A stretch of 64,000 bases of DNA from a virus: positions 27,512 to 91,511 of the IMG/VR virus record IMGVR_UViG_3300031952_000010; one strand, given 5' to 3'. Position numbers and translations under genes: made by a program. The number at the start of each line of letters is the position of its first letter. The stretch's first letter is position 1. The notes under the pieces were generated by a model. The model searched no databases. It had not been told where the DNA came from and saw nothing but the letters and a program-made list of their open reading frames with translations. Positions 2,584 through 47,421 of the stretch are shown piece after piece.

Positions 2584-3411
2584 ATGAAGAACACAAAAAG
2601 TTACAATGAATTAGTACAAAAGATGAGAGGATTTTTCCTTGATAAAGGTTTTATAGAGGTACCAACCCAATCTAGATTATCAATATTAGCGGCATGTGAG
2701 AACCCACATTCAATCGCTACTTTCAACTATAATGGGGAGATTTGGCCTTTACCACAGACAGGTCAGATGTGGTTGGAGTATGAGTTACTTAAGAACCCTG
2801 AATGGGAAGGAGTATTCTGTATTTCAACATCTTATAGACAAGAAAAGAACCCAATCCATGGTAGACATGAATTAATATTCCCAATGTTTGAATTTGAATC
2901 TAAAGGTACGATGAAAGATATGGTGGAACTTGAATCAGAACTTTTGAATCACTTGGGATTTAACAAACCTGTTGAGGTAAAATATGATGATGTTTGTGAG
3001 GAATATGGAAATGTTTCAATTTTAGAGGACGAGCATGAATCGAGAATGTGGGAAGAAAAAGGTTCGGTGATATCACTTCAAAATTTTCCATTAAGAACAA
3101 ACCCATTTTGGAACATGAAACATAATGAAAATAGTGTCTTTAATAAAGTGGATGTAATTCTTTACGGGCAAGAAACAATTGGAAGTGCGGAAAGAAGTTG
3201 TGACCCTGAAGAGATGAAACATAATTTCTACACGATTGAAGGTGGCGGTTATTCCGCCAAGTTGTTTGAACTATTTGGTAAAGATAGAGTTGAGAAAGAA
3301 CTTGAAGAATTCTTATCTTTGGATTTCTTCCCAAGATTTGGTGCGGGTATTGGTTTAACAAGATTGTCAAGGGCTTGGAATTTAAATCAAGTTGAATTGG
3401 AATTTATTTAA
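2584..3411 (+). CDS. Class II Asp/Asn-tRNA synthetase catalytic-domain paralog (probable asparagine synthetase, AsnRS2/AS-AR type)
   Basis: Motif 1 GFIEVPT, motif 2 SYRQE..RH..F.MFEFE, ETIGSAER, motif 3 GAGIGLTRL; no anticodon-binding domain (275 aa). Confidence 0.8.
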   Translation: MKNTKSYNELVQKMRGFFLDKGFIEVPTQSRLSILAACENPHSIATFNYNGEIWPLPQTGQMWLEYELLKNPEWEGVFCISTSYRQEKNPIHGRHELIFPMFEFESKGTMKDMVELESELLNHLGFNKPVEVKYDDVCEEYGNVSILEDEHESRMWEEKGSVISLQNFPLRTNPFWNMKHNENSVFNKVDVILYGQETIGSAERSCDPEEMKHNFYTIEGGGYSAKLFELFGKDRVEKELEEFLSLDFFPRFGAGIGLTRLSRAWNLNQVELEFI

Positions 3412-23793: not shown

Positions 23794-24325
23794 GATACCA
23801 ATGTTGTACGTAGATTCCCTTCATTAATCCAACTTTTAATTTCGCATGAATTGCTTTGATATGTATGTCGTTATCTATTGATAACATTTTATCTTCTTTA
23901 AAACCCCCAAGACGTTCCCAAACAGATTTTTTAATTAAAATAATAACACCGCTAAATAATTGTTTATTTGTAATATCCGTAACTTCGGTACTATATGTTT
24001 CCCACATTTTTTTACCAAATTCTCTGTGGTATGTTTGGTTATCATTTTTTTGGTCAATACCTGGTGCAATTTGATGAGGGCACCCAATCCTATTTGTTAC
24101 ACAAGTGAAAATAGAATATTGTGGATTTTTTTCAATAACCAACTCAATATATTTACCAAAAAAATGAGTAGTATGTACCGCATCACCATCAATAAAACAA
24201 ACCCAATCATTGGTTCTTACTAATGACATAGTTTCGTTATAAGACTTACCAATATTTTTATTGGAGTTCCAAGGTATGGAATGAAAAACTCTTGGTTTTG
24301 GTGGTACGAATGTATTTTCTGTCAT
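23756..24325 (-). CDS. GT-A fold glycosyltransferase
   Basis: IGKSYN, WVCFIDGD, VWERLGGF.E, IDND. Confidence 0.7.
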   Translation of the reverse strand: MTENTFVPPKPRVFHSIPWNSNKNIGKSYNETMSLVRTNDWVCFIDGDAVHTTHFFGKYIELVIEKNPQYSIFTCVTNRIGCPHQIAPGIDQKNDNQTYHREFGKKMWETYSTEVTDITNKQLFSGVIILIKKSVWERLGGFKEDKMLSIDNDIHIKAIHAKLKVGLMKGIYVQHWYRGGNQNNKSHLL

Positions 24326-24393
24326 ATTATCTTATATTACTACAAGTAAATTAAACAATCACTTGTATTTATAAATATAGATACCCCCTGTTT

Positions 24394-25449
24394 ATGAAAT
24401 TAGTAATCGTATCAACGTTTTGGAATTCCGAAAAATTTGTTTCGGATTGTATTAAATCTTTAAAAAACCAATATTACACAAATTTTGTGTCATATATGAT
24501 TGATGATATGTCAACCGACAAATCATACGATGTTGCCAAAAAAGAAATTGGTGATGATGAACGTTTTATTCTTATTAAAAACACTGAAAAAAAATATAAA
24601 ACTAAAAACTTTATAGATGTTATTCGTAATAACGTAAATATTGATTGGGATGATGTCATTATTGAATTGGATGGGGATGACCAATTAAATGATAATTTTG
24701 TGTTAGGTTTAATTAATAAAACTTATACTGACCCTAATATTTGGATTTGTGGTTCTAAATGGAAAGACAAAAAAGGTGGGACTATGAAGTATGGTCGTGC
24801 AAATGCAGATAAACCTAGAAGTACATCTTGGAACTTTTCTCATATGAGAACTTATCGAGCATTTTTATTCAGAATGATAAAAGACGAACATTTAAGGTAT
24901 AACGGGCAATATTTTAAAGCTGCGGTAGATTTAGGTATTGGGATACCTATGTTAGAAATGTCAGGTAATGAACATTATTATTTCTTAGATGAGGTAACCT
25001 ATCTTTACACATGGCACGACCATCAATCTTATTCTAAAAATAGTTCTTTTGGGGATTCTAAATTACAAGGTCTTACCGCAAAACATATATACCAATTACC
25101 TGTTTATAAAAAATTGGTTATTGGTGACAGTGATGTTAAAACGAATGTAGTTGTTGAAAATTCTCCGACTTCTATGGACTTAATAAATAATATATTAACG
25201 GATAAACCGTTTAACCCAAAACCATCATCACTTAATTATGATTTAATTAATCAAATTAAGAATAACAAAAATGTTTATAACCCCAAAGAAAACATTAAAC
25301 CTATTAGAGAGAATACCCCGTTAGATAGGAATAAATTAGTTGAAATTAAAAAAGGTTCAATTGCTGACCAAGCAAAAAGGGCCTTCATAGAAAAACCTAG
25401 TAGACTAAATCAGACACCAAATATTTTTGGTGGTAGAAAAAGAATGTAA
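24394..25449 (+). CDS. Glycosyltransferase family 2
   Basis: IDDMSTDKS, ELDGDD, SHMRTY. Confidence 0.85.
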   Translation: MKLVIVSTFWNSEKFVSDCIKSLKNQYYTNFVSYMIDDMSTDKSYDVAKKEIGDDERFILIKNTEKKYKTKNFIDVIRNNVNIDWDDVIIELDGDDQLNDNFVLGLINKTYTDPNIWICGSKWKDKKGGTMKYGRANADKPRSTSWNFSHMRTYRAFLFRMIKDEHLRYNGQYFKAAVDLGIGIPMLEMSGNEHYYFLDEVTYLYTWHDHQSYSKNSSFGDSKLQGLTAKHIYQLPVYKKLVIGDSDVKTNVVVENSPTSMDLINNILTDKPFNPKPSSLNYDLINQIKNNKNVYNPKENIKPIRENTPLDRNKLVEIKKGSIADQAKRAFIEKPSRLNQTPNIFGGRKRM

Positions 25450-25505
25450 CCCCACTTTGATTATTTCATAATTTATATTATCTTTGTATCATAATTAAAA
25501 AAAAT

Positions 25506-25682
25506 ATGTGGGTAATTGTAAAAATGATGAGAAATCTTAATGGGATTATGATACCTGTTATTATTTTAAATGGACAATCTGAAATTTGGGAATTTAAAAC
25601 TGAATCCGAGGCAAATGAGATGAAAAATATTTTTTCAAAAAATTCTGACTCAGGTTACGAGTACTTAATTAAGAAGATTTAA
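25506..25682 (+). CDS. Small hypothetical protein (58 aa)
   Basis: MWVIVKMMRNLNG...YLIKKI after TATCTTTG; below the ORF-track cutoff. Confidence 0.55.
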   Translation: MWVIVKMMRNLNGIMIPVIILNGQSEIWEFKTESEANEMKNIFSKNSDSGYEYLIKKI

Positions 25683-25687
25683 CTTAC

Positions 25688-25761
25688 GGCTCCGTAGCTC
25701 AATTGGACAGAGCAACACACTTCTAATGTGTAGGTTACTGGTTCGAGTCCAGTCGGGGTCA
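25688..25761 (+). tRNA. tRNA-Arg(UCU)
   Basis: Cloverleaf; ACACA-ctTCTaa-TGTGT; GGTTCGAGTCC. Confidence 0.95.
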
Positions 25762-25775
25762 CTAAAATTTATAAT

Positions 25776-26027
25776 ATGGGAAGTTATGACAATATATTAG
25801 AACAAGAACATAATGAGTTTGTTGAAAGCGACTTGTTTTGTTTTTACGTTCGTGAAAAAATAGAAAACTCACATTTTCATAAATACGATGGAATTGCCCC
25901 TGAGGGATTTATATTAATTCCAGAACAAACCTTAGAAAGATTAAAAGACTTCGAAACTTGGAAGGAATGGAAGAATAATCCATCTATTTTGAAAGAAATG
26001 ATGATTTATGACCTAAAAAATGAATAA
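25776..26027 (+). CDS. Hypothetical protein
   Basis: 83-aa ORF. Confidence 0.6.
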   Translation: MGSYDNILEQEHNEFVESDLFCFYVREKIENSHFHKYDGIAPEGFILIPEQTLERLKDFETWKEWKNNPSILKEMMIYDLKNE

Positions 26028-26066
26028 TTGTTTTGTGGATTAGAATATAATTAGTATATTTGTGGT

Positions 26067-26783
26067 ATGAAATATTCAGCACTTAAAGACATCGTTTATA
26101 TTGGTTTGATGGTTTTAGCTATCGGAGGAACCAACGAGTATTTGGACAAATACGACTACAGTTATGACAAAGTAATGGCGTCTATCGGGTCTGAAGCAAA
26201 AAGACTTGATAAAGTTTACGGTTATGACAAGAACTACTCAAAAGAAGATGTTGTTGAGGTAACTCCTGACGTAGAACAACCATCTTCAACTGAAGTTACT
26301 TCTGACCAAGTAATCTACATCCACGGTTTTGGTAACTACACTCAAAGTGACCTTTATACAATAAAAGAAGGTGTTGAAAACTTCTACGGTATCCGTTGTG
26401 TAATTTCTGAAAGTGTTGAGTCTGATGATTTCTACTATAACAATAACACTAACGTATTGTTAGCTTACAAAGTATTGTCATTATCTGTTGGTAAATCAAA
26501 CATGAATATGTACGTAACTGACGAACCATTATGTGAAGAAAATTCTAATAATTTAATCAGTGGTCACGCAAGAATTAATTGTGATGGTTCTGTTATCAGT
26601 ACTAAAGAAATGAGAAATAACAACCACTACAATAATAATAGTTTAGTTCACACTGCGGTACACGAGTTAGGTCATAACTTTGGGTTGTCTCACTGTAATA
26701 ACCAATCTTGTATCATGAAATCTCACGGTTTAGATACTAAAGAGTTCTGTGATGAGTGTAAATCAAAAATTAACAAACATTAA
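26067..26783 (+). CDS. Archaemetzincin-like zinc metallopeptidase with N-terminal membrane anchor
   Basis: HELGHNFGLSHC...CIM...FCDEC. Confidence 0.85.
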   Translation: MKYSALKDIVYIGLMVLAIGGTNEYLDKYDYSYDKVMASIGSEAKRLDKVYGYDKNYSKEDVVEVTPDVEQPSSTEVTSDQVIYIHGFGNYTQSDLYTIKEGVENFYGIRCVISESVESDDFYYNNNTNVLLAYKVLSLSVGKSNMNMYVTDEPLCEENSNNLISGHARINCDGSVISTKEMRNNNHYNNNSLVHTAVHELGHNFGLSHCNNQSCIMKSHGLDTKEFCDECKSKINKH

Positions 26784-26794
26784 AATAAATAGAT

Positions 26795-27058
26795 ATGCCT
26801 GATTTTAGTGCAGAAATTGACATCGAACCATATGAATATGTTTCGGCGTGTAGTAAACGTGAAATAGTAGAACTTCTTGAGTCTTTAGTTGAGGAGGGTT
26901 ACATTAGTAGAAGTGCAATCTCAGCAATTGATGCTGATAGGGATAAGAACCTTTTAGATGAAGAATGGGATGTGATAACTGATAAGTTGAATCAAAATCG
27001 ACTTATGTTATCTAATGAAGAAGAAGAACTAATTAGGAAAATATCAAAAAGATTTTAA
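26795..27058 (+). CDS. Hypothetical protein
   Basis: 87-aa ORF. Confidence 0.6.
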   Translation: MPDFSAEIDIEPYEYVSACSKREIVELLESLVEEGYISRSAISAIDADRDKNLLDEEWDVITDKLNQNRLMLSNEEEELIRKISKRF

Positions 27059-27063
27059 AAAAG

Positions 27064-27094
27064 TTTGACAATTGCAGAATTTTTCATAACTTTG
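27064..27094 (+). promoter_or_regulatory. Bacteroidota housekeeping-sigma promoter for leader 1 and tRNA operon 1
   Basis: TTTG (-33) ... TAACTTTG (-7). Confidence 0.75.
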
Positions 27095-27140
27095 TAATAA
27101 TTATAGAAACAGGTAGAAATACCACAACAAAAAAAAAACA

Positions 27141-27260
27141 ATGAAAACTAATAAACAACATATGGTCATTAACGTGAAATCGCAATTTAGTAATTGCTGG
27201 TATCCGCGTATTTCGCATACAAGTTCAGTTAGTTTATTAAGTGATATAATTTTTGAATAA
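27141..27260 (+). promoter_or_regulatory. Attenuator leader peptide of tRNA operon 1 (39 aa)
   Basis: MKTNKQHMVINVKSQFSNCWYPRISHTSSVSLLSDIIFE; A-rich initiation context; codons 12-26 match all 14 downstream tRNAs. Confidence 0.85.
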
Positions 27261-27285
27261 AAGATTAATCACACAAGATAACACG

Positions 27286-27320
27286 AATCCTGAACTCAAA
27301 AAGTTCAGGATTTTTTTTTT
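27286..27320 (+). terminator. Attenuator terminator of tRNA operon 1
   Basis: AATCCTGAACT-caaaa-AGTTCAGGATT plus T run; competing AGTTCAG at 27222-27228. Confidence 0.9.
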
Positions 27321-27330
27321 GTTATAAAGT

Positions 27331-27342
27331 GTTCTTTGACAT
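27331..27342 (+). promoter_or_regulatory. rrn-type boxA antitermination element
   Basis: GTTCTTTGACAT just before the first tRNA; recurs ahead of other RNA genes. Confidence 0.7.
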
Positions 27343-27358
27343 ATTGGTAAAAAGTAAA

Positions 27359-27430
27359 CGGGGTGTAGTCTCGAGGAGAGACGCGTGTTTTGGGAACACG
27401 AGGCGGCAGGTTCGACTCCTGTCACCCCGA
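27359..27430 (+). tRNA. tRNA-Pro(UGG)
   Basis: CGGGGTG/CACCCCG; CGTGT-ttTGGga-ACACG. Confidence 0.92.
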
Positions 27431-27436
27431 CTACAT

Positions 27437-27510
27437 TGTCACATAGCTCAGTTGGTTAGAGCGTTCGCCTGATACGCGAAAGGTCGATGGTTCGAGCCCA
27501 TCTGTGACAA
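27437..27510 (+). tRNA. tRNA-Ile(GAU)
   Basis: TTCGC-ctGATac-GCGAA. Confidence 0.95.
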
Positions 27511-27516
27511 CTTAAT

Positions 27517-27590
27517 GACTTCGTAGCTCAGTTGGCTAGAGCACCTCACTTTTAATGAGGGAGTCCCGAGTTCGAGTCTCGGCGGGGTCA
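27517..27590 (+). tRNA. tRNA-Lys(UUU)
   Basis: CCTCA-ctTTTaa-TGAGG. Confidence 0.95.
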
Positions 27591-27596
27591 CAATAA

Positions 27597-27668
27597 GGTC
27601 GGTTGGCCGAGTGGTTTAGGCGATAGTCTGCAAAACTATCAACACAGGTTCGACTCCTGTACCGACCT
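27597..27668 (+). tRNA. tRNA-Cys(GCA)
   Basis: ATAGT-ctGCAaa-ACTAT; U73 discriminator. Confidence 0.95.
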
Positions 27669-27673
27669 CAAAT

Positions 27674-27746
27674 ACGTCTGTAGCTCAGTTGGTAGAGCAT
27701 TGGTCTCCAAAACCAAGTGTCGGTGGTTCGAATCCATCCAGGCGTG
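27674..27746 (+). tRNA. tRNA-Trp(CCA)
   Basis: TTGGT-ctCCAaa-ACCAA. Confidence 0.95.
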
Positions 27747-27753
27747 CTAAAAT

Positions 27754-27839
27754 TGACGGGTTCGCGTAGTTGGCCGAACGCACCAGACTGTTAATCTGGC
27801 GAGACTTCTCCACCGTGGGTTCGAATCCCACCCCGTCAG
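27754..27839 (+). tRNA. tRNA-Asn(GUU) with a long variable arm
   Basis: TGACGGG/CCCGTCA; CCAGA-ctGTTaa-TCTGG; extra GAGActTCTC arm. Confidence 0.88.
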
Positions 27840-27888
27840 CAAACATTTACGAACTTTCTAATATTTATTAATATAAAATGTTAATATT

Positions 27889-28446
27889 ATGGAAAGGTAT
27901 TCGGAAAAAATAATTACCTTAAGGAAAGAAGGTAAAACCTATAAAGAAATTAAAAACATTATAGGGTGTGCAATGTCAACAATATCGTATCATTGTACAT
28001 TAAATGGTTTAGGGGATAATAACCAAAAGGTAACTGAGAACGAAATCATCGAACTTCAAAAAATGTATGACGAATTTGGTTCACTTAAAAAAGTTGCTAA
28101 AATAACGGGAAGGGCTTTTGATACCGTTCAAAAATATGTTAAGACAAAACAAAAAGTTAAAACTGTAACATCTTCTGAATCAGTTATTTTATGGAGAAAA
28201 AGGACTAAAATTAAATTGATTGAATATAAAGGAGGTAAATGTGAAATTTGTGGATATGATAAATGTAATAGAGCCTTACAATTTCATCATAAAAATCCAT
28301 TAGAAAAGGATTTTTCAATATCGGGTAGAAGTTTATCATTTGACAGATTAAAAGACGAGGTTGATAAATGTATGTTAGTTTGTTCTAATTGTCATTGTGA
28401 AATACACGATAATTTAATAACGATAAATAGGTTGATTAGGGAATGA
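27889..28446 (+). CDS. HTH-containing HNH (homing-type) endonuclease inserted in the tRNA operon
   Basis: Two HTH-like segments; KGGKCEICGY, LQFHH, CMLVCSNCHCEIH. Confidence 0.88.
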   Translation: MERYSEKIITLRKEGKTYKEIKNIIGCAMSTISYHCTLNGLGDNNQKVTENEIIELQKMYDEFGSLKKVAKITGRAFDTVQKYVKTKQKVKTVTSSESVILWRKRTKIKLIEYKGGKCEICGYDKCNRALQFHHKNPLEKDFSISGRSLSFDRLKDEVDKCMLVCSNCHCEIHDNLITINRLIRE

Positions 28447-28566
28447 TTGAACTGATAGTTCGAGAGTGAATACTGACTAGTACAATCGGAGTTTGCAGGT
28501 ATTCACCCGAGTAATGCTAATCGTAAAAACAGATGTCCACTGAACCATCTTCTGTTTTCCTAAATT

Positions 28567-28647
28567 GGGAGTATTGAGCAACGGTTGCTCAGCGGTCTGT
28601 AAAACCGTCGCCATTTGGCATTGCAGGTTCGAATCCCGCTACTCCCA
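28567..28647 (+). tRNA. tRNA-Tyr(GUA)
   Basis: GCGGT-ctGTAaa-ACCGT; long variable arm. Confidence 0.93.
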
Positions 28648-28701
28648 CAATAAAAAAAGGGGAATAACTTCCCCTCTTTTCTTTAATTTGGTTGTTATTA
28701 A

Positions 28702-28866
28702 TTATTTTTTTTTAGAAACAATTGACCACACACCACCTGCAAGTGTAACCGCTGCTCCGATAAGTTCTTGTACTGATGAATCAGTTGCAAGACCTTTCAT
28801 AATCAGGATACCACCTACGAAAGTAAGTGTGTGTCTAACGATACCTAGGATTTGTTCTTTAGTCAT
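28702..28866 (-). CDS. Small two-TM holin-like protein (54 aa)
   Basis: MTKEQILGIVRHTLTFVGGILIMKGLATDSSVQELIGAAVTLAGGVWSIVSKKK; below the ORF-track cutoff. Confidence 0.7.
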   Translation of the reverse strand: MTKEQILGIVRHTLTFVGGILIMKGLATDSSVQELIGAAVTLAGGVWSIVSKKK

Positions 28867-28922
28867 TTTAATGTTGATTAAAGGTTTATGCCAGTCTATA
28901 AGTATCGGAGAAATAGGTAAAC

Positions 28923-28993
28923 TGTCCTTTGGTCTAATGGCAGGACACGTGGTTTTGGTCCACGCGGTGGAGGTTCGAATCCTTCAGGGACAA
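28923..28993 (+). tRNA. tRNA-Gln(UUG)
   Basis: CGTGG-ttTTGgt-CCACG. Confidence 0.95.
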
Positions 28994-29045
28994 CAAGGGG
29001 TTCGGGGGAAACCCAATAGTGGGTGATGAGCCCACATCCTCCAAA

Positions 29046-29116
29046 TACCGAATGGTCTGGTGACCGAAAATGGCTCATATCCGTTTTTAGAGTGGTTCGA
29101 AACCATTATTCGGTAC
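29046..29116 (+). ncRNA. Non-canonical tRNA-like element (CAU anticodon, minimal D arm)
   Basis: TACCGAAT/ATTCGGTA; GGTC-tggt-GACC; ctCATat loop; GGTTCGAAACC. Confidence 0.55.
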
Positions 29117-29123
29117 TTTAAAC

Positions 29124-29196
29124 AGTTCCTTAGCTCAGTTGGGAGAGCGCTTGTTTTACATGCAAGATGTCGTAGGTTCGAATCCTACAGGAACTA
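29124..29196 (+). tRNA. tRNA-Val(UAC)
   Basis: CTTGT-ttTACat-GCAAG. Confidence 0.95.
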
Positions 29197-29558
29197 CAAA
29201 AAATGTTTGGAGAATTAAATAATTTGCCGTACATTTGTAATATAGAAGTAAGGGGGGTAGGTAGTTAGTGGGTTGGTGACCTACTCCCCTGACGAAAGAG
29301 TTCTTTGAATAAAATGTTGGTGGATGGTAAGAAACGGTAAACTCGTAAAGTGCATTAACCTGTTGATATGAAATGGTGAAACGAGAGTCCATATCAGCTA
29401 CTCATCACAATAAAAATATTGATAATGGTTTTCCCCATTCAACGAAGGTCGACTCTTCAGAATGGAATCGGAATTCATCACCCTTTGCTGAGGCCTCATT
29501 AAAACTCAGGAAGCAATTAAGATTGGAGCGAGACGGGTACTCCATCATTATTATACTT

Positions 29559-29631
29559 GGAACGGTAGCTCAGTTGGTAGAGCACTTGATTGAAGCTCAA
29601 GGTGTCGGCGGTTCGAACCCGTCTCGTTCCA
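29559..29631 (+). tRNA. tRNA-Phe(GAA)
   Basis: CTTGA-ttGAAgc-TCAAG. Confidence 0.95.
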
Positions 29632-29704
29632 CGGAGTCCTGAAATAACAGGATGCCCCCACTCCCATATGGCAGCCAGTCCATTAAGCTGGTGAAGGGGG
29701 TAAA

Positions 29705-29811
29705 TAGTCAAGTGGACGTAATGCGGGATGGTCCCAAGTCCCCAACTCTAACGAGGTAAGGTAGTCTAATCCGTCTTGAACGGTATTCGGTTCGAGTCCG
29801 ACCTTGATTAC
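29705..29811 (+). ncRNA. Enlarged tRNA-like element with no clear anticodon arm
   Basis: TAGTCAAG/CTTGATTA acceptor-like stem; TCGG-TTCGAGT-CCGA T arm; extra hairpins. Confidence 0.5.
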
Positions 29812-29814
29812 AAA

Positions 29815-29895
29815 TTGCGATAATGGTGTAGGGTCGTTCTCATGAGACGATTTGGTAGATATACCCCTGTGAGGTTCGAGTCCTCAAATCGCAAC
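29815..29895 (+). ncRNA. tRNA-like element lacking a D arm (CAU anticodon)
   Basis: TTGCGAT/ATCGCAA; TCGTT-ctCATga-GACGA; TGAGG-TTCGAGT-CCTCA. Confidence 0.55.
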
Positions 29896-29904
29896 AAATT
29901 ATAT

Positions 29905-29978
29905 GGTGACTATAGCTCAGTTGGCAGAGCAAAGGTTTGTGGTACCTTGTGCCATGGGTTCGATTCCCATTAGTCACC
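29905..29978 (+). tRNA. tRNA-His(GUG)
   Basis: Encoded G-1/C73; AAGGT-ttGTGgt-ACCTT. Confidence 0.95.
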
Positions 29979-30078
29979 CAAATAGGTTGGGGTCCCTTGT
30001 AGTAACGGATTGAACTATAGTAAGTAAACTACAAGTATCTAGTAAGAAGTCACAGATGGGTTCGTGACGACCTAAATT

Positions 30079-30163
30079 GGAGGAATGGCAGAGTGGTCTA
30101 TCGCACTTGTCTTGAAAACAAGCGTACCGAAAGGTACCGTAGGTTCGAATCCTACTTCCTCCG
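30079..30163 (+). tRNA. tRNA-Ser(UGA)
   Basis: CTTGT-ctTGAaa-ACAAG; long variable arm. Confidence 0.95.
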
Positions 30164-30186
30164 CAAAACAATTAGAAAAAAAACAT

Positions 30187-30390
30187 ATGACAGACAAGTT
30201 AAAAGAGTTGTTAGAGACATCTCAAATTGGGGAACCTGAAATCGTTGATTTAATTCATTCGTATTATAAATTAGTGACCGCTGAATTATTCACACAAGAA
30301 GAATTTGATACCGTATTAGAAAGATTAGGTATTACACAAAACGGGAACGTTTTTATTTTCAACGAGAACATAACTTATACTTTTAACTAA
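30187..30390 (+). CDS. Small hypothetical protein (67 aa)
   Basis: [13 protein letters not shown]...; the ORF-track start 30085 lies inside tRNA-Ser. Confidence 0.6.
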
Positions 30391-30393
30391 AAT

Positions 30394-30465
30394 AGTTCCT
30401 TGGTGTAATGGATAGCACTAAACACTACGGATGTTTCAGTGAGGGTTCGAGTCCTTCAGGGACTA
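30394..30465 (+). tRNA. tRNA-Arg(ACG)
   Basis: AAACA-ctACGga-TGTTT. Confidence 0.95.
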
Positions 30466-30470
30466 CTATT

Positions 30471-30555
30471 GGAAGATTGGCAGAGTGGTAATGCGGCGGT
30501 TTGCTAAACCGTAGACCTCGAAAGGGGTCCACAGGTTCGAATCCTGTATCTTCCG
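30471..30555 (+). tRNA. tRNA-Ser(GCU)
   Basis: GCGGT-ttGCTaa-ACCGT; long variable arm. Confidence 0.95.
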
Positions 30556-30600
30556 CTTATTTATAATTTTATACTATTTATTATCGAATAATATGATATC

Positions 30601-31995
30601 ATGAGTTACAAAAAATTTTTAATAGCGGAATCCGAGAAAAAGAACATTAGAGAAATGTACGGTTTACTAACCGAACAGTATTTCAAACCACCAAACGGTG
30701 GTGAAGGTCAAGTGGTAAATAAATATCCTGCGGGTTACTACTCCTTAAGTGGAACTGATAAGGCGGGTAACGTATATGACAATACAATCAATTTACAAAA
30801 AATTATTGACAATGCCAAAGAGTTTTTAACAACCAATAAAGGTTTTATTCCAAGAGTTGTAATAAACGCGGGAGAATCAATTATCCCTAACTACGACACT
30901 GAAGGGGGTACTGGTGTTAAAAACTCAGGATGGTTATCTGAAAAAAGAAAAAATAAGATTTCTGAATATGTCAAAAATCAATTAAAAGATTTAGTTAGTA
31001 AAAAATTAATATCAAAAGAACCTGAGGTTATTCTATATTTTGATGAAGCTAAAACATTAACGGTACCGTCAGGTGGTTGGGAGGGTTATCGAACATGGAA
31101 AAGAAGTTCTGAAGCTGAAAAGGTTAATAACCCTAATAATGCCGAGTACACCAAATTAAAAACAGGATACGATAATGACCAATTCACCAAAATAAATTTT
31201 AAAATTGTTCCTGATTTAGGCCCAAACCAATGTTCATTTAATGTCAAAATTGGTGTGCATTACGATGATTTAGATATTGGTCATAGATGTAATAAGGCGA
31301 GATTCCAAATATTGGCTAATGGTGTTCCGTTAACAACTGGTGCGGGCTCAACCTGTGGAAATGGTTTATCGTATGCGGACATGAATAACGGTGGTGGTAG
31401 TTTAGATTGTAAATCAGGCGACATTGGTGGTAAAAGAATGAATTACTTCCAACTAAATAGTAAGTCTATTGTGGACAAAATAATGGCGGCGTCTCCCGAC
31501 AAAAACTCAATAAAAATATCCATGAAATGTACATCAACAGGATTTGATGATGCTTCAGGTAGATGTCACCAAGATGTACCACATATTACGATTCATAACA
31601 CTGATGGTAAACAAACGGTTAACACCTACCCTAAAGTTAACGATAAAGATTTAATTACAATTGACAAGTGCGGTAATTTAATTACAGGTGGTGGTGGTGT
31701 CGCAACAAAAAGTAAAGATGCTGGTGGTACTGCAACAACTACAGTTACTACAACAAAACCTACAGGTCAAAAATTAAATTTTGCGTCACCAGCAACAGGA
31801 ACGTTAACTTCTGACCAAGCGATTCTTAATAAAATTAGTGATGGCTCAATTAAGAAAAACGCGGATAATACTTATTCAGTATTAAAAACATTTAATTATA
31901 ATGGTGTGTCTTATAGAATTAATGATACAATTGTTAAAATATTACCTAAAGGTAGTGTAGTAACTACGACAACGACAACTATTAAACCAAAATAA
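30601..31995 (+). CDS. Hypothetical (putative virion-associated) protein
   Basis: N-terminal FLIAESEKKNIREMYGLLTEQ; TATTTAT upstream. Confidence 0.6.
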   Translation: MSYKKFLIAESEKKNIREMYGLLTEQYFKPPNGGEGQVVNKYPAGYYSLSGTDKAGNVYDNTINLQKIIDNAKEFLTTNKGFIPRVVINAGESIIPNYDTEGGTGVKNSGWLSEKRKNKISEYVKNQLKDLVSKKLISKEPEVILYFDEAKTLTVPSGGWEGYRTWKRSSEAEKVNNPNNAEYTKLKTGYDNDQFTKINFKIVPDLGPNQCSFNVKIGVHYDDLDIGHRCNKARFQILANGVPLTTGAGSTCGNGLSYADMNNGGGSLDCKSGDIGGKRMNYFQLNSKSIVDKIMAASPDKNSIKISMKCTSTGFDDASGRCHQDVPHITIHNTDGKQTVNTYPKVNDKDLITIDKCGNLITGGGGVATKSKDAGGTATTTVTTTKPTGQKLNFASPATGTLTSDQAILNKISDGSIKKNADNTYSVLKTFNYNGVSYRINDTIVKILPKGSVVTTTTTTIKPK

Positions 31996-32020
31996 AAATG
32001 GGGGTCAGTGACCCCCAATT

Positions 32021-32416
32021 CTATTCGATATTACCGTAGTAGTGGTAAGAATTTTTACCATCATCAACAATAACTGTCATTGATGTGTTATCAACACATT
32101 GTGATGTGAAATAAGTCACAACACAGGTTTTGTTAGATTTCAATTCCACAGAGTAAAAAGAATTTACCCCAGGATTTGATTCTTTTGTACCTGAGAATTT
32201 GTATACCATCTCAGTACCTTCACTTTTAATTACTAAAGAATCTTTACCAATTAAAACGGTTGGTGAACTTAACAATACTGAATCAACCCATGTTGATGTA
32301 CTATCAGTGATTGCGTAACCAATCTCTAAAGATTTAACTTTTACTTTATAGATGTCTTGTGATAAACAAACTAATGTTGTTAAAGACAATAACGATGTTA
32401 GGATTAATTTTTTCAT
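32021..32416 (-). CDS. Secreted hypothetical protein
   Basis: Signal peptide MKKLILTSLLSLTTLVCLSQ. Confidence 0.7.
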   Translation of the reverse strand: MKKLILTSLLSLTTLVCLSQDIYKVKVKSLEIGYAITDSTSTWVDSVLLSSPTVLIGKDSLVIKSEGTEMVYKFSGTKESNPGVNSFYSVELKSNKTCVVTYFTSQCVDNTSMTVIVDDGKNSYHYYGNIE

Positions 32417-32546
32417 ACAACAAATATAACGCTCTTATTTGACTAAAACAAATTTTTTTATTATTTTCTTTCTAAAAATATTTTTTAAAAAGTTTTGGCA
32501 GTCTCAAAATTTATTGTATCTTTGTATTCACAAAAACGATATAACT

Positions 32547-32996
32547 ATGACAACTACCAACACAATCATCGACGTAACAACAGGAACATTAGCAGGTGAC
32601 GTATTCTACGGAAACTTTAAAACTCGTGTTAAAAATAAAGTAATTAATGTTATGGTTTCAAACCACTTGAAAGACATTAACAAAGAATATGAATTCCGTA
32701 TCGCAGGGAAATGTCAAGCAGGATTCATCAGTATCCACGATACTAAAGGAACCGCTGGTGAAGTTATCCGTGGATACCAAAAAAACTCTTTGGTTAATAT
32801 CCAAGCAAAAAATGAGTTCGGTCATTGGATGAATGTTTACACAACTAAAGGTGGTAAATGGTACTCAATCGACAAAGGTTTCTTGGAAACTATTACAGTT
32901 GGTACTATGAGAGAATCTTTCCCTGATATGTGCGATATGCAAATTTGGGAAAGAATGGGAGCTAAGACTTGGGCTGATAAGGCTTTCACAAAATAA
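32547..32996 (+). CDS. Hypothetical protein
   Basis: ORF track 32439..32996; ATG 32547 follows TATCTTTG. Confidence 0.65.
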   Translation: MTTTNTIIDVTTGTLAGDVFYGNFKTRVKNKVINVMVSNHLKDINKEYEFRIAGKCQAGFISIHDTKGTAGEVIRGYQKNSLVNIQAKNEFGHWMNVYTTKGGKWYSIDKGFLETITVGTMRESFPDMCDMQIWERMGAKTWADKAFTK

Positions 32997-33066
32997 GAAG
33001 TTTTTACCAATATTTGACTTTTTATGAAAGTCGTATATATTTAATAGAAAATACATAATACTGCAA

Positions 33067-33138
33067 ATGAAAAATTTAAATATCATACTATTAGGCGGGA
33101 CTGAGGCGGATACGTTAACTCGGACGGCGATGGTATGA
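33067..33138 (+). promoter_or_regulatory. Attenuator leader peptide of tRNA operon 2 (23 aa)
   Basis: MKNLNIILLGGTEADTLTRTAMV; run ATA CTA TTA GGC GGG ACT GAG GCG GAT matches the downstream tRNAs. Confidence 0.82.
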
Positions 33139-33162
33139 TGTTTTGTCAACAATAACAATCAG

Positions 33163-33192
33163 AACCCATCTCCAAAAAAGATGGGTTTTTTT
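33163..33192 (+). terminator. Attenuator terminator of tRNA operon 2
   Basis: AACCCATCT-ccaaaaa-AGATGGGTT plus T run; competing hairpin 33129-33170. Confidence 0.88.
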
Positions 33193-33261
33193 ATGTCTAA
33201 AAGTTGGTAATTAAATAAATTGTTGTATCTTTGTGAAACAATAAAGGGGATGAAACCCCGA

Positions 33262-33273
33262 GTTCTTTGACAT
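33262..33273 (+). promoter_or_regulatory. boxA element preceded by a boxB-like hairpin
   Basis: GGGG-atgaaa-CCCC then GTTCTTTGACAT. Confidence 0.7.
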
Positions 33274-33295
33274 GTTGGTTTGAAAAAAAAATTAA

Positions 33296-33367
33296 GGTCT
33301 ATTCGTTCATCGGCTAGGATGCTACCCTGTCACGGTAGTGAGGAGGGTTCGATTCCCTCATGGACCG
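33296..33367 (+). tRNA. tRNA-Asp(GUC)
   Basis: CTACC-ctGTCac-GGTAG. Confidence 0.95.
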
Positions 33368-33378
33368 CAAACAATAAG

Positions 33379-33454
33379 GGGGGTGCATGTACCAAGGCAT
33401 TGGCGATGTCGATTTGCAATCAACGTGAGGTGGGTTCGATTCCCATCATCTCCA
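33379..33454 (+). tRNA. tRNA-Ala(UGC) with atypical D arm
   Basis: G3.U70 pair; ttTGCaa loop; GGTTCGATTCC. Confidence 0.85.
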
Positions 33455-33467
33455 CACAAAAATATAT

Positions 33468-33539
33468 CGTGGGATAGAGCAGTGGTAGCTCGCAAGGCTC
33501 ATAACCTTGAGGTCGGGGGTTCGAATCCCTCTCCCGCAA
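33468..33539 (+). tRNA. tRNA-fMet(CAU)
   Basis: C1:A72 mismatch; CAAGG-ctCATaa-CCTTG. Confidence 0.88.
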
Positions 33540-33548
33540 CTAATACAT

Positions 33549-33622
33549 CGTGGGTTAGACTGGAGGTGGTTCCAGCTTGGTCTCATAAGCCAAAGACGGG
33601 GGTTCGAGTCCCTCACCCGCAA
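33549..33622 (+). tRNA. tRNA-Met(CAU)
   Basis: TTGGT-ctCATaa-GCCAA; also has C1:A72, so elongator versus initiator role is uncertain. Confidence 0.8.
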
Positions 33623-33700
33623 CAAATGTGTCTCAATTCCCTGAAGAAATTCAAAGTTGAGGTCTCGGTAGACAGAACGCGTCTGATTCTACCCAAATAC

Positions 33701-33773
33701 GCGAATATCGTATAGTGGTTTATTACTCCATCCTTCCAAGTTGGAGACGACAGTTCGATTCTGTCTATTCGCT
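33701..33773 (+). tRNA. tRNA-Gly(UCC)
   Basis: GCGAATA/TATTCGC; ctTCCaa loop; U73. Confidence 0.93.
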
Positions 33774-33780
33774 CAAAAAT

Positions 33781-33861
33781 GCTTAAGTGGTGGAATGGTA
33801 TACACGTATGTCTTAGGAACATATGTCTTATGACGTGAGGGTTCGAGTCCCTCCTTAAGTA
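33781..33861 (+). tRNA. tRNA-Leu(UAG)
   Basis: TATGT-ctTAGga-ACATA; variable arm. Confidence 0.93.
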
Positions 33862-34428
33862 CAAAACCAAGGTAATGTCAGTAGGATGAGGCCGCAATCG
33901 GATTCCTTTGAACAACGCGTGAGGGGCGGCTTTCACGATGTGGCTGATAACCCGAGGTTTTAAGACCCCACGAGTAACGGAGATATCCGACCGTTATGGA
34001 GTGTGAACCTGACTTGAAGGCTTCAAGGCTATGGGGGAGGCAACACAAACAAACACGGATTCCCCATTATGGATTAAGGGGGTAAGGGGCTTTAATTAGT
34101 CGTAATACAATCCACAAGTTGTAAGAACACTGAACAATCTTACAATACACACTCTGACTTCCGAGTGAGACTCACCACGTAACTTTGGGGGTAGGGTGAA
34201 GATGTTCTGAGGATAACACTGAACGCTGAACAGTAAAAACCATGACGCATTTGATTGGTAGAATAGGTTAAGACGGAGTGTGAAAGTAGAAACCCCCGAT
34301 GGATGGTTACTAAGCTCTTTAACTCAAAAGGGATAGTCGGGAGGGATATATAAGCTTAAGGGAAACTATAAGTAAAAACTAGGTCAGTTCCGATTTAACC
34401 CCTATCGGTACGAGTGTCTGACCTTAAT

Positions 34429-34501
34429 GCCTCCTTAGCTCAGTTGGCAGAGCACTTGTTTTGTAAACAAGATGTCGTTGGTTCGAATCCGACAGGAGGC
34501 T
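34429..34501 (+). tRNA. tRNA-Thr(UGU)
   Basis: CTTGT-ttTGTaa-ACAAG. Confidence 0.95.
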
Positions 34502-34527
34502 CAATGAGTAAGAGATACTCATCAAAT

Positions 34528-34613
34528 GCTCGGGTGGTGTAATTGGTAGCCACGCAAGACTTAAAATCTTGTGGACTGTAAGGTCCGTGCGGGTTCGATT
34601 CCCGCCCCGAGTA
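34528..34613 (+). tRNA. tRNA-Leu(UAA)
   Basis: CAAGA-ctTAAaa-TCTTG; long variable arm. Confidence 0.95.
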
Positions 34614-34615
34614 CT

Positions 34616-34813
34616 AAAACAAATCTTACATAAGACGGATTAGCACCGTTGAAAGGAACCTTGGCTTCACCGCGGAGTAATTACCGTAACAGAAGTTCTA
34701 AATGCCCCAAGGTACTATGTAATGGACCCTGCTCTGATGTGCACGTCAACAGGTGATGGGGAACAAACCATCGGTCAAATCTAAACCTACGGTGAGCGTA
34801 GAAGATTTGTTTT
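34616..34813 (+). ncRNA. Unidentified ~200-nt multibranched RNA
   Basis: 12-bp closing stem AAAACAAATCTT/AAGATTTGTTTT plus several internal stems; no ORF. Confidence 0.6.
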
Positions 34814-34818
34814 TATTT

Positions 34819-34893
34819 GGTCCCATCGTCTAACGGTTAGGACATCAGGTTTTCATCCTGAAAATCGGGGTTCGATTCCCCGTGGGACTACCA
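34819..34893 (+). tRNA. tRNA-Glu(UUC), CCA encoded
   Basis: TCAGG-ttTTCat-CCTGA. Confidence 0.95.
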
Positions 34894-34914
34894 AATATTC
34901 TTCATTTATATAAA

Positions 34915-34988
34915 GGACTTGTAGCTCAGTTGGTTAGAGCACCGCACTCATAATGCGTAGGTCCATGGTTCGAGTCCATGCTGGTCCA
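34915..34988 (+). tRNA. tRNA(CAU), probable Ile2 (lysidine; reads AUA)
   Basis: ctCATaa loop; body GGACTTGTAGCTCAGTTGGTTAGAGC resembles bacterial Ile2; Met not excluded. Confidence 0.75.
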
Positions 34989-35040
34989 CTTTTTTCAAAT
35001 TATACATTGCCAGTCCAAATTTTTTTTGTATATTTGTTAT

Positions 35041-35541
35041 ATGAAAAATCAACTACCATATTGTAACACATCTGAAGCGATTAAAGGATATGATAATTCT
35101 CCTATTGCAAAATCCGAAACAAATGATTGTGTTGTTCGTGCGATAGCATCAGCATTTGACCTTGAATACGATAGAGCTCATAAATTTGTTGCCGACACAT
35201 TTGGTCGTAAACCAAGACAAGGTACTTTTGGATTTGGTCCTGGTATGAATAAGATTGCCGAAGAAAGAACTCGTATTGGTAGAAAATGTGTCAAACCTAT
35301 GGGTACTAAAGCAGAACACAGTTCTTTCCGTTCACTATCTTACGATGTTAAAGTTAAAGGAGTTAAAACTTCACGACAAATGACTGTGGGTACTTTCATT
35401 TCAAAATACCCTTTAGGTACTTATGTAGTTACAGTTAAACGTCACGCCTTCACTATTAAAGATGGTGTGGTTATCGGTAATCGTGAAGATGCTATTCAGA
35501 AAAGAAAAATCATGTTATTGGCTTGGAGAGTTGGTTCATAA
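35041..35541 (+). CDS. Hypothetical phage protein
   Basis: ETNDCVVRAIA motif; the ORF-track start lies inside a tRNA. Confidence 0.65.
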   Translation: MKNQLPYCNTSEAIKGYDNSPIAKSETNDCVVRAIASAFDLEYDRAHKFVADTFGRKPRQGTFGFGPGMNKIAEERTRIGRKCVKPMGTKAEHSSFRSLSYDVKVKGVKTSRQMTVGTFISKYPLGTYVVTVKRHAFTIKDGVVIGNREDAIQKRKIMLLAWRVGS

Positions 35542-35565
35542 TATATAACCCATATATTTATCAGT

Positions 35566-36153
35566 ATGTCAGATAGTATTATAAATTTCTTAAAGAAACA
35601 GGGAGATATTTTTAGTTCCGCTAAATATTTTGGTGGTATAGATAAATTACGTGAGATTGGTAAGACTAATCCTAAAATTATGGATATGATAACTAAATCA
35701 TCTTATGGTTATCTGGAATTTCAGGCGGGTGATAGGCCAAGACAAACTAAGACCTATAAATTTAATTTCTATGTATTAGATTATGATATGGAGGACGATA
35801 TGGGTGGTGGTGATTACAACCACGCTTATTTAGCAATTGACTTAATTGTTGATTACCCAAATTTAACAGATGAAGAAATTTTAAGAATTGGTCAATGGGC
35901 TGCTGAGTATTGTGAGGATGGTCGTTGTGACTATAACATTTCAAACAAAATCTTTGAAGATTCTTTGATTATGTCAGACGTTAAAAAAATTAACGGTAAA
36001 GATGTCCCATGGGTATCAGGTTCTTTATTAAACAACCAATCAGATATCGTTCCCGATGAAGAAGTTGAAGAATTAATTAAGAAAAGCGAGAATGGTGGTA
36101 CTGTTAAAGAATCCGTTATACGAATAAAAAAATTACTTAAAGTTGATTTATAG
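35566..36153 (+). CDS. Hypothetical protein
   Basis: Ends VKESVIRIKKLL; TATTTAT upstream. Confidence 0.65.
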   Translation: MSDSIINFLKKQGDIFSSAKYFGGIDKLREIGKTNPKIMDMITKSSYGYLEFQAGDRPRQTKTYKFNFYVLDYDMEDDMGGGDYNHAYLAIDLIVDYPNLTDEEILRIGQWAAEYCEDGRCDYNISNKIFEDSLIMSDVKKINGKDVPWVSGSLLNNQSDIVPDEEVEELIKKSENGGTVKESVIRIKKLLKVDL

Positions 36154-45380: not shown

Positions 45381-45514
45381 AAAAAAAGATTTGGTAAATC
45401 AAAAAACTTTACCTACCTTTGTACAACAAAAGAGATAGACAACAATTCAGATACAAATCTCAAAAAAAAATAAAAAAAGATTTGGTAAATCAAAAAACTT
45501 TACCTATCTTTGTA
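45381..45514 (+). promoter_or_regulatory. Duplicated 43-nt promoter unit (tandem promoters) upstream of the large ncRNA
   Basis: 45381-45423 and 45472-45514 differ at one base; each has TTTG...TAyCTTTG; a third TATCTTTG at 45305. Confidence 0.85.
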
Positions 45515-46947: not shown

Positions 46948-47333
46948 TGGAGGTAGAGGGGTTCGAACCCTCGTGTTGTACACCTTACCTATTAAGGACT
47001 ACACGCTTAGGATAACATTTTCTAATGTTCCAAAAATATTTAGTTTGTTCTTCACCATCGTAAACTAACAACCAATGGACGACTCGATTTTGGGTTCAGT
47101 CATTTTTCCACCTTTGTAAAGACTTCTGTTCCTAGGTTGTATGTCCACCGACCCGTATGGTGTTTCCTATATGTTAGGCAACAACCGCAGCGTCTTCACG
47201 GATTAATCCGATGGTCGCCATTTTGTCTAAAACGTTTCCGTTTACAGTTTACATCCGTAGATTTAAGTGATAGGATACATCTCACTGCGTGCCCCGAATA
47301 ACTAACAATGCCAGTCAATTCCAAGTTACCCCC
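46948..47333 (-). ncRNA. ssrA: tmRNA
   Basis: 5' GGGGGUA pairs with 3' UACCUCC-A including G3.U; T arm GAGGGUUCGAACCCCUC; tag ORF 47239-47174 GNVLDKMATIGLIREDAAVVA; boxA upstream, terminator downstream. Confidence 0.92.
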
Positions 47334-47421
47334 ATATGTTAAAGAACTTATTTCTCCTACAAAGATAGTAAAGTTTTCTCAATTACCAAACTATTTTATA
47401 TTTATATGTAAATAAATATTT

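Follow-up and report, generated by a model that had tools for sequence, protein, structure and literature searches.

What decides when a phage makes use of the tRNA genes that it carries? Proposed roles of phage tRNAs are the matching of codon usage and the replacement of tRNAs destroyed by host defences (e.g. PMC11464382), and the reason for and timing of their use are still debated. The question is raised in concrete form by a stretch of 64,000 nucleotides (referred to as the window; positions 27,512 to 91,511 of the IMG/VR record IMGVR_UViG_3300031952_000010), part of a 91.5-kb viral record with 32% G+C, in which a promoter, a 39-codon open reading frame (ORF), an intrinsic terminator and a boxA-like motif precede a long array of tRNA genes. 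An initial annotation had named these parts and had interpreted the ORF, hereafter leader 1, as an attenuator whose codons list the tRNAs of the operon behind it (array 1). Each of the parts could be located in the sequence, and the co-variation of leaders with their arrays, a second leader in the same genome, matched antiterminators and the position of the array-matching codons all argue for the proposed interpretation. Based on these sequence comparisons, we consider it likely that leader 1 is a ribosome-mediated leader-peptide transcription attenuator, which gates the phage tRNA operon by sensing tRNA supply. Its regulatory codons are an inventory, with one codon per downstream tRNA, rather than a run of a single amino acid.

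Codon inventories of the leaders and their co-variation with tRNA arrays

Codons and tRNAs were matched under strict wobble rules. All 15 codons at 27174-27218 are read by tRNAs of array 1, and together they cover all 14 firmly predicted tRNAs of the array (14/14), in agreement with the initial annotation. When stop-free 15-codon segments were drawn from all six frames of the record (74,050 in total), a coverage of 14 was reached by this one alone; the eight best segments all lie inside leader ORF 1, and unrelated segments reach about 11 at most. The analytic probability of the 15-codon match is 7e-11 under phage coding usage and 2e-9 under base composition, and values of 3e-4 to 3e-3 apply to the whole 39-codon ORF, with no segment selected. 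The inventory is enriched in rare synonymous codons (TCG, CCG, GTG and TGC; p 0.003), which could raise the sensitivity of a sensor; RNA structure is an alternative cause of their presence.

The 14 tRNAs originally listed for array 1 are the same that Rfam supports among the 16 called by ARAGORN, and the list has to be extended by two CAU calls that Rfam does not back. These lie at 29047-29116 and 29809-29895 (+ strand) and are absent from the matches to the Rfam tRNA model at E<=1. The call at 29047 recurs in relatives, between the Gln and Val tRNAs; the one at 29809 is 87 nt long and does not recur in relatives. Because a CAU tRNA is recurrent and an in-frame ATG at codon 8 of leader 1 is invariant among homologues, the inventory can be read as extending over codons 4-26 (23 codons).

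Using a degenerate pattern derived from the core of leader 1 to find homologous leaders, we recovered the ORF in at least 24 related viral contigs. In 18 homologues the core shows hardly any variation, synonymous sites included, and the ORF tail 3' of the heptamer AGTTCAG varies freely. TGG and TCG have traded positions between two leader variants, so that both are retained. Behind these leaders, tRNA order and content vary from array to array, yet all arrays are drawn only from the amino acid set of the leader; the one exception is the contig L258, in which, as in the window, array 2 comes next at a distance within the 1,500-nt gap limit.

A second leader ORF (leader 2) precedes array 2. Its codons 7-22 (ATA, CTA, TTA, Gly, Gly, Thr, Glu, Ala, Asp, Thr, Leu, Thr, CGG, Thr, Ala, Met) cover 8/8 anticodon classes of array 2 (P 4e-5 to 1e-4), and rare codons are enriched in this inventory as well (p below 2e-4). 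Because each leader lists its own array, leaders 1 and 2 split the amino acids as arrays 1 and 2 do. Homologues of leader 2 were found in two contigs (L118 and L041), and in L118 a tRNA-Phe has been gained in the array and a Phe codon in the leader. No phage tRNA reads the CGG codon of leader 2 (33121-33123, + strand), and the long ORFs of the phage do not use it; it could be a host-dependent, built-in slow codon. No Pfam family and no PHROG family was found for either leader peptide.

With the gene 5' of leader 1 as query, seven related contigs (L001-L007) were obtained, which we regard as fragments of very large phages because CheckV puts their completeness at 13-32% at lengths of 39-93 kb. 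Blastn of leaders 1 and 2 against these seven contigs gave no match, and the leaders in them were located by position. Megablast of 26000-31000 against deposited phages gave only stray tRNA matches, from which we concluded that there is no annotated relative. A search of viral contigs with the boxA-like 17-mer returned more than 116 loci. A tRNA array begins within 150 nt of the motif at no fewer than 51 of these loci (about 51 among the matches listed), and at 36 of the approximately 51 boxA-headed arrays, again among the matches listed, a short ORF and a terminator lie just 5'.

The leaders formed 27 clusters at 50% identity, which were merged by hand into 22 families. Across these families, leaders compared with their own arrays have a mean purity of 0.68, a coverage of 0.93 and an F1 of 0.77, versus 0.55, 0.78 and 0.61 when leaders are shuffled among arrays (z = 6.8, 5.9 and 7.7, respectively). 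None of 100,000 permutations reached the observed values, so that the leaders pass the permutation test of codon content against array content that the initial annotation had proposed as a check. Neither leaving out this window (z 7.3) nor restricting the set to complete arrays (z 6.2) abolishes the co-variation. The match between regulatory codons and operon supply that is expected of an attenuator is found both in leader 1, for 14/14 tRNAs, and in this 22-family co-variation. Individual contigs illustrate it. In L009, a leader with the core WSSSRWSSR precedes tRNAs for Ser, Ser, Arg, Trp, Arg and Arg; in L105, a leader in which 17 consecutive codons are drawn from just six amino acids precedes tRNAs for those same six (Pro, Gln, Tyr, Thr, Gly, Lys); Asp, Glu, Val, Leu and Ala dominate the leader of an array with the corresponding tRNAs (L053); and the leader of L120 contains 13/13 array amino acids.

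Antiterminator pairing and the proposed switch

AGTTCAG (27222-27228) can pair with CTGAACT (27290-27296) in the 5' arm of terminator 1, forming a duplex of -8.5 kcal/mol; the terminator hairpin has -15.4 kcal/mol. Both this pairing and the inner GTGAT/ATCAC hairpin, as originally proposed, form in folds. AGTTCAG is invariant in 16 distinct homologues and the following 60 nt are variable; the inner helices are not conserved in relatives. Across 34 distinct leaders, the terminator 5' arm pairs better with the leader than with shuffled leaders (mean z -2.4), and 53% of the leaders reach p<=0.05. The antiterminator strand mostly ends 0-17 nt 5' of the stop codon in these leaders, the same placing near the end of the ORF as in classical leader-peptide attenuators. 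In addition, pairing with the leader's own terminator arm amounts to -12.9 kcal/mol versus -8.4 for the arms of other leaders (22 families; z -8.5, 0/100,000 permutations), which is co-variation at the family level. Across the leader class, these comparisons give strong support to a predicted antiterminator.

The array-matching residues are also placed unevenly with respect to the antiterminator strand. Of the residues in the zone 5' of the strand they make up 67%, versus 54% in the tail (p values of 4e-5 by Fisher and 2e-5 by paired Wilcoxon test), and in leader 1 they account for 21/22 residues in the upstream zone versus 11/16 in the tail. In folds in which the RNA was masked by a ribosome at codons 4-24, AGTTCAG is predicted to pair with CTGAACT before the terminator 3' arm is made, and a ribosome placed at codon 28 or later, as far as the stop, is predicted to leave the terminator 5' arm free.

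Our working model of the switch is as follows. Host RNA polymerase would initiate at 27064-27094, and a ribosome would translate the 39-codon ORF. If all listed codons are read fast, the ribosome would reach the ORF tail and cover or pass AGTTCAG, upon which the terminator at 27285-27322 would form and transcription would end. Scarcity of any one of the listed tRNAs would make the ribosome stall at codons 4-24; AGTTCAG would then pair with the 5' arm of the terminator, and transcription would continue. The polymerase would reach boxA, which would probably load host Nus factors, and the array would be transcribed. As phage tRNAs build up, the stall would end, and the loop would be self-limiting because the accumulating phage tRNAs remove the stall.

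Several observations weigh against this model. The antiterminator of leader 1 is a 7-bp helix with a loop of about 61 nt (p about 0.1 versus shuffles), and no compensatory changes were found among the leader 1 homologues, in which all seven pairs are invariant. A ribosome at codon 26 is predicted to mask AGTTCAG, and with one at codon 24 only 6/7 pairs would be left. The earlier caveat that the last listed codons lie close enough for a stalled ribosome to mask the strand therefore holds; the inventory codons ATT, TCG and CAT near the strand are each duplicated earlier, at codons 10, 14 and 7. The initial annotation had called for folds of both states: ribosome-masked folds come out as the model needs, but the terminator is favoured in every full-length fold, so that the switch must be kinetic. 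Before transcription of the 3' arm, a ribosome-free fold is predicted to form the antiterminator as well, so that read-through might occur on a leader that is not translated. Five of the 14 tRNAs (Phe, His, Ser, Arg and Ser) could be expressed independently, from an internal promoter that has a boxA of its own (29206-29309). For leader 2, a second promoter lies 3' of the leader, and the antiterminator has only 5 bp. Among the matches listed, 15/51 boxA-headed arrays have no leader. Amino acid starvation would trip the same switch, yet extra tRNA would be of no help then. Finally, the leader is retained but the array altered in L001-L004; in L003 and L004, the arrays have shrunk to eight tRNAs of another mix, with a purity of about 0.29.

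In L003/L004 (about 1740-1850 in L003) and in L001/L002 (11705-11809), same-family leaders lie directly 5' of arrays that lack boxA and several of the listed tRNAs. The state of L001-L004 suggests recent array deletions that the leader has yet to follow, and arrays seem to change faster than leaders. Leaders whose codons fail to track their arrays had been named at the outset as grounds for abandoning the attenuator interpretation; such failure applies in part, to L003 and L004 only.

Some of these observations would be expected of a general translation-capacity attenuator, in which a diverse peptide with rare codons gauges the overall speed of elongation with no codon-by-codon match. Leader diversity is indeed high (15-19 different amino acids), rare codons are enriched, leader 2 contains CGG, for which the phage has no tRNA, and the same 13-amino-acid leader set stands before differing arrays (L001-L004; L248-L253). 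However, such a gauge would leave unexplained that leaders 1 and 2 split the amino acids like their arrays within one genome, that the leaders of small arrays are narrow in composition (Ser/Arg/Trp; Pro/Gln/Tyr/Thr/Gly/Lys; Asp/Glu/Val/Leu/Ala), that the arrays of the leader 1 family are subsets of the leader amino acid set, and that shuffling of the leaders abolishes the match (0/100,000 permutations). We regard it as unlikely.

We give far less credence to an independent small gene, in which the ORF, having a promoter and a terminator to itself, would encode a functional micro-peptide and the tRNAs would be transcribed from elsewhere. Conservation of the peptide core in at least 24 contigs, the internal promoter in array 1 and an additional promoter after the terminator in 9/32 leaders, leader 2 among them, would fit this explanation; in about 22/32 leaders there is none before boxA, and none lies within 27322-27359. 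Against a gene of this kind also stand the lack of a Pfam or PHROG family, synonymous sites conserved as strongly as others, and the tracking of arrays by composition, not sequence, across unrelated leaders. Matched antiterminator strands and the position effect would moreover be purposeless in a free-standing gene. Chance or compositional bias, by which a small AT-rich ORF would happen to lie beside a terminator of neighbouring genes, could be invoked on the grounds that the 15-codon segment was picked post hoc and that AT-rich DNA is rich in short ORFs. Yet the segment is unique among 74,050, the unselected ORF is still improbable at 3e-4 to 3e-3, terminator 1 sits 3' of the leader's own promoter, and the pattern is repeated at array 2 and in 20 further families. 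Permutation and genome-wide controls reject chance, whose probability we consider negligible.

Taking attenuation as the probable function of the leaders, we tentatively propose a wider role, plausible though open to considerable doubt: they might be programmable multi-input sensors of the tRNA pool. The phage would list those tRNAs that it can replace, and a single slow codon, as in an OR gate, would report the loss of a tRNA, for example to host anticodon nucleases or other tRNA-cleaving defences; the matching spare set would be switched on, and off again once decoding recovers. If true, this would amount to an inducible counter-defence and tRNA homeostat that is widespread in large Bacteroidota phages. 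Phage tRNAs would be expressed on demand, with the decoding speed at individual codons as the signal, and the leaders would provide a small natural module for reading out how available chosen tRNAs are.

Transcription signals and other features of the window

The promoter pattern TTTG-N18-21-TANNTTTG occurs 15 times in the window versus 3.7 expected, and 0/100 shuffles gave 15 or more. Leader 1 is a short ORF with a usable start just 3' of such a predicted promoter, and its terminator lies between the ORF and the tRNAs (Table 1). No promoter pattern was found between terminator 1 and tRNA-Pro (27322-27359), the arrangement expected of an attenuator; leader 2 departs from it, having its own TATCTTTG at 33229. 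The internal promoter that the initial annotation had placed at about 29231 exists, and its position is corrected to 29206-29237. The array head of L005-L007, which lacks a leader, is homologous to the stretch 3' of the internal boxA-like site. In this region (29206-29558), about 250 nt with no convincing ORF lie between the boxA-like GTTCTTTGAA and tRNA-Phe, and the stretch may be a processed small RNA.

Table 1. Predicted features of the two leader-array units, with positions in the window.
Feature	Position	Strand	Details
Leader 1 promoter, Bacteroidota-type	27064-27094	+	TTTG 27064-27067, N19, TAACTTTG 27087-27094
Leader ORF 1	27141-27260	+	39 codons; A-rich stretch 5' of ATG at 27141
Codon inventory of leader 1	27150-27218 (codons 4-26, extended form)	+	core 27174-27218, 15 codons, 14 tRNAs
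Antiterminator 5' strand AGTTCAG	27221-27229 (heptamer 27222-27228)	+	copies terminator 3' arm; within codons 27-30
Inner hairpin GTGAT...ATCAC	27241-27272	+	encloses stop codon; in minimum-energy folds
Intrinsic terminator 1	27285-27322	+	12-pair stem 27285-27313, then T run
boxA-like 17-mer GTTCTTTGACATATTGG	27331-27347	+	exact second copy at 33262-33278
tRNA array 1	27359-30556	+	Pro, Ile, Lys, Cys, Trp, Asn, Tyr, Gln, (CAU), Val, Phe, (CAU), His, Ser-UGA, Arg-ACG, Ser-GCU
HNH endonuclease gene with N-terminal helix-turn-helix	27889-28446	+	between tRNA-Asn and tRNA-Tyr of array 1
Internal promoter unit	29206-29309	+	promoter 29206-29237, G+C-rich hairpin 29252-29289, boxA-like GTTCTTTGAA 29300-29309
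Leader 2 promoter-like site	33013-33043	+	TTTG, 19 nt, TATATTTA; last base of -7 box off consensus
Leader ORF 2	33067-33138	+	23 codons
Leader 2 intrinsic terminator	33161-33195	+	between leader ORF 2 and array 2
Second promoter unit of array 2	33229-33278	+	-7 box TATCTTTG 33229-33236, hairpin 33247-33259, boxA-like motif 33262-33278
tRNA array 2	33296-34989	+	Asp, Ala, CAU x2, Gly, Leu-UAG, Thr, Leu-UAA, Glu, CAU

The boxA-like 17-mer, which we take to resemble the general boxA consensus, is present in Pedobacter, Mucilaginibacter, Chitinophaga, Flavobacteriales, Bacteroidales and other Bacteroidota genomes. In about 48 of the 81 instances in Bacteroidota genomes, the exact 17-mer lies 254-858 nt 3' of the end of the 16S rRNA, that is, in the 16S-23S spacer, which indicates a Bacteroidota host. 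A position in the leader of the 16S was rejected in favour of the spacer, with 0 matches for the 16S 5' end within 600 nt downstream in cellular genomes. A second boxA set is known from the 16S-23S spacer of rrn operons (PMC10250234). By its shared sequence 3' of a promoter, the 17-mer is a putative host-type rrn boxA site, and it suggests that the polymerase would be made processive past the attenuator via boxA. A third boxA-like site with two mismatches lies on the minus strand at 47331-47347, beside a promoter match (region 47331-47390), and two near-identical promoter matches stand 91 nt apart on the plus strand, at 45390 and 45481 (region 45390-45512). The window may contain further boxA-driven non-coding units.

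Evidence on transcription consists of assembled metatranscriptome contigs, which give no RNA ends, strand or levels and in which uncovered parts are uninformative. Freshwater contigs span 27067-27419, from leader 1 into tRNA-Pro, and 33038-33515, from leader 2 into array 2. They fit read-through, of which they are a weak hint, with DNA carry-over another possible source. Within array 2, a full-length match to the freshwater-1 RNA (RF02979; 84 bits versus a cut-off of 72) lies at 34718-34779 (+ strand), between tRNA-Leu-UAA and tRNA-Glu. From tRNA-Leu-UAG to tRNA-Thr extends a tRNA-free spacer of about 560 nt (33867-34426, + strand) which is covered by long contigs from all four RNA libraries; it may be a structured RNA freed by tRNA processing. 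The HNH gene in array 1 probably encodes a homing endonuclease.

Farther upstream on the plus strand, a 26-codon ORF with seven Asn codons (about 2449-2529), the end of which overlaps a terminator (to about 2540), precedes a gene resembling class II aminoacyl-tRNA synthetases (aaRS) at 2584-3411 (Pfam tRNA-synt_2, 3e-14). This arrangement, which belongs to the same phage, resembles a classical attenuator for Asn, and we counted it in favour of attenuation at leader 1.

Relation to known regulatory systems

Full-text literature searches returned no description of tRNA genes under leader-peptide control, which agrees with the initial surmise that the system is undescribed. The Rfam search of 24000-36000 at E<=1 identified no known leader or riboswitch. 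The sole leader-type match in this region, to Thr_leader, was rejected as an identity, as it scored 24.4 bits versus a cut-off of 55, mainly over the terminator, and no match to a T-box was obtained. T-box riboswitches bind uncharged tRNA directly, have no ORF, answer to one tRNA and control aaRS or amino acid genes. What they would share with the phage leaders is attenuation of transcription that responds to the state of a specific tRNA.

The phage motif recalls the rrn antitermination elements (boxB, boxA and boxC; rrnTAC; PMC10250234) in that an identical 17-mer occurs in the 16S-23S spacer of many Bacteroidota genomes, the expected place of a second boxA set, and in that a hairpin precedes the boxA-like motif at 29252 and 33247 in the window. 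It differs in that it heads tRNA arrays and lies 3' of an attenuator; its binding of NusB/NusE is putative. The closest published case, the trn operon of Anabaena sp. PCC 7120, is a long tRNA array induced under translational stress by control at the promoter, where direct repeats are bound by the repressor TrcR (PMC8421152, PMC10272220), a difference from the phage leaders. The terms 'leader peptide', 'attenuat' and 'terminator' are all absent from the main text of the 2021 paper (PMC8421152). The likeness lies in a spare tRNA array that would be silent by default and on when translation is impaired.

In mechanism, the closest relatives are the multivalent attenuators, with two or three amino acids sensed. 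Among the enterobacterial amino acid attenuators, the ilvGMEDA leader senses Ile, Leu and Val and the thr leader Thr and Ile; the trp, his, leu and pheA leaders each sense a single amino acid. One example of a single-amino-acid leader is pheL (PMC3082878). The phage leaders resemble these attenuators in having a promoter, a short ORF predicted to be translated, codons linked to the operon, an intrinsic terminator and a putative rare-codon sensor, and also in a 5' copy of the terminator 3' arm near the end of the ORF that can form an antiterminator. In contrast to them, the phage system has boxA downstream and sits in a Bacteroidota phage. Enterobacterial attenuators regulate biosynthetic enzymes through runs of one to three amino acids, whereas the phage leaders would regulate tRNAs through a list of up to 14 or more different codons, most of them single. 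Since the listed codons mostly occur only once, a single slow codon must suffice in the phage leader. If our reading is correct, attenuation would be widened from one to three amino acids to at least 14 inputs, and from enzymes to tRNAs.

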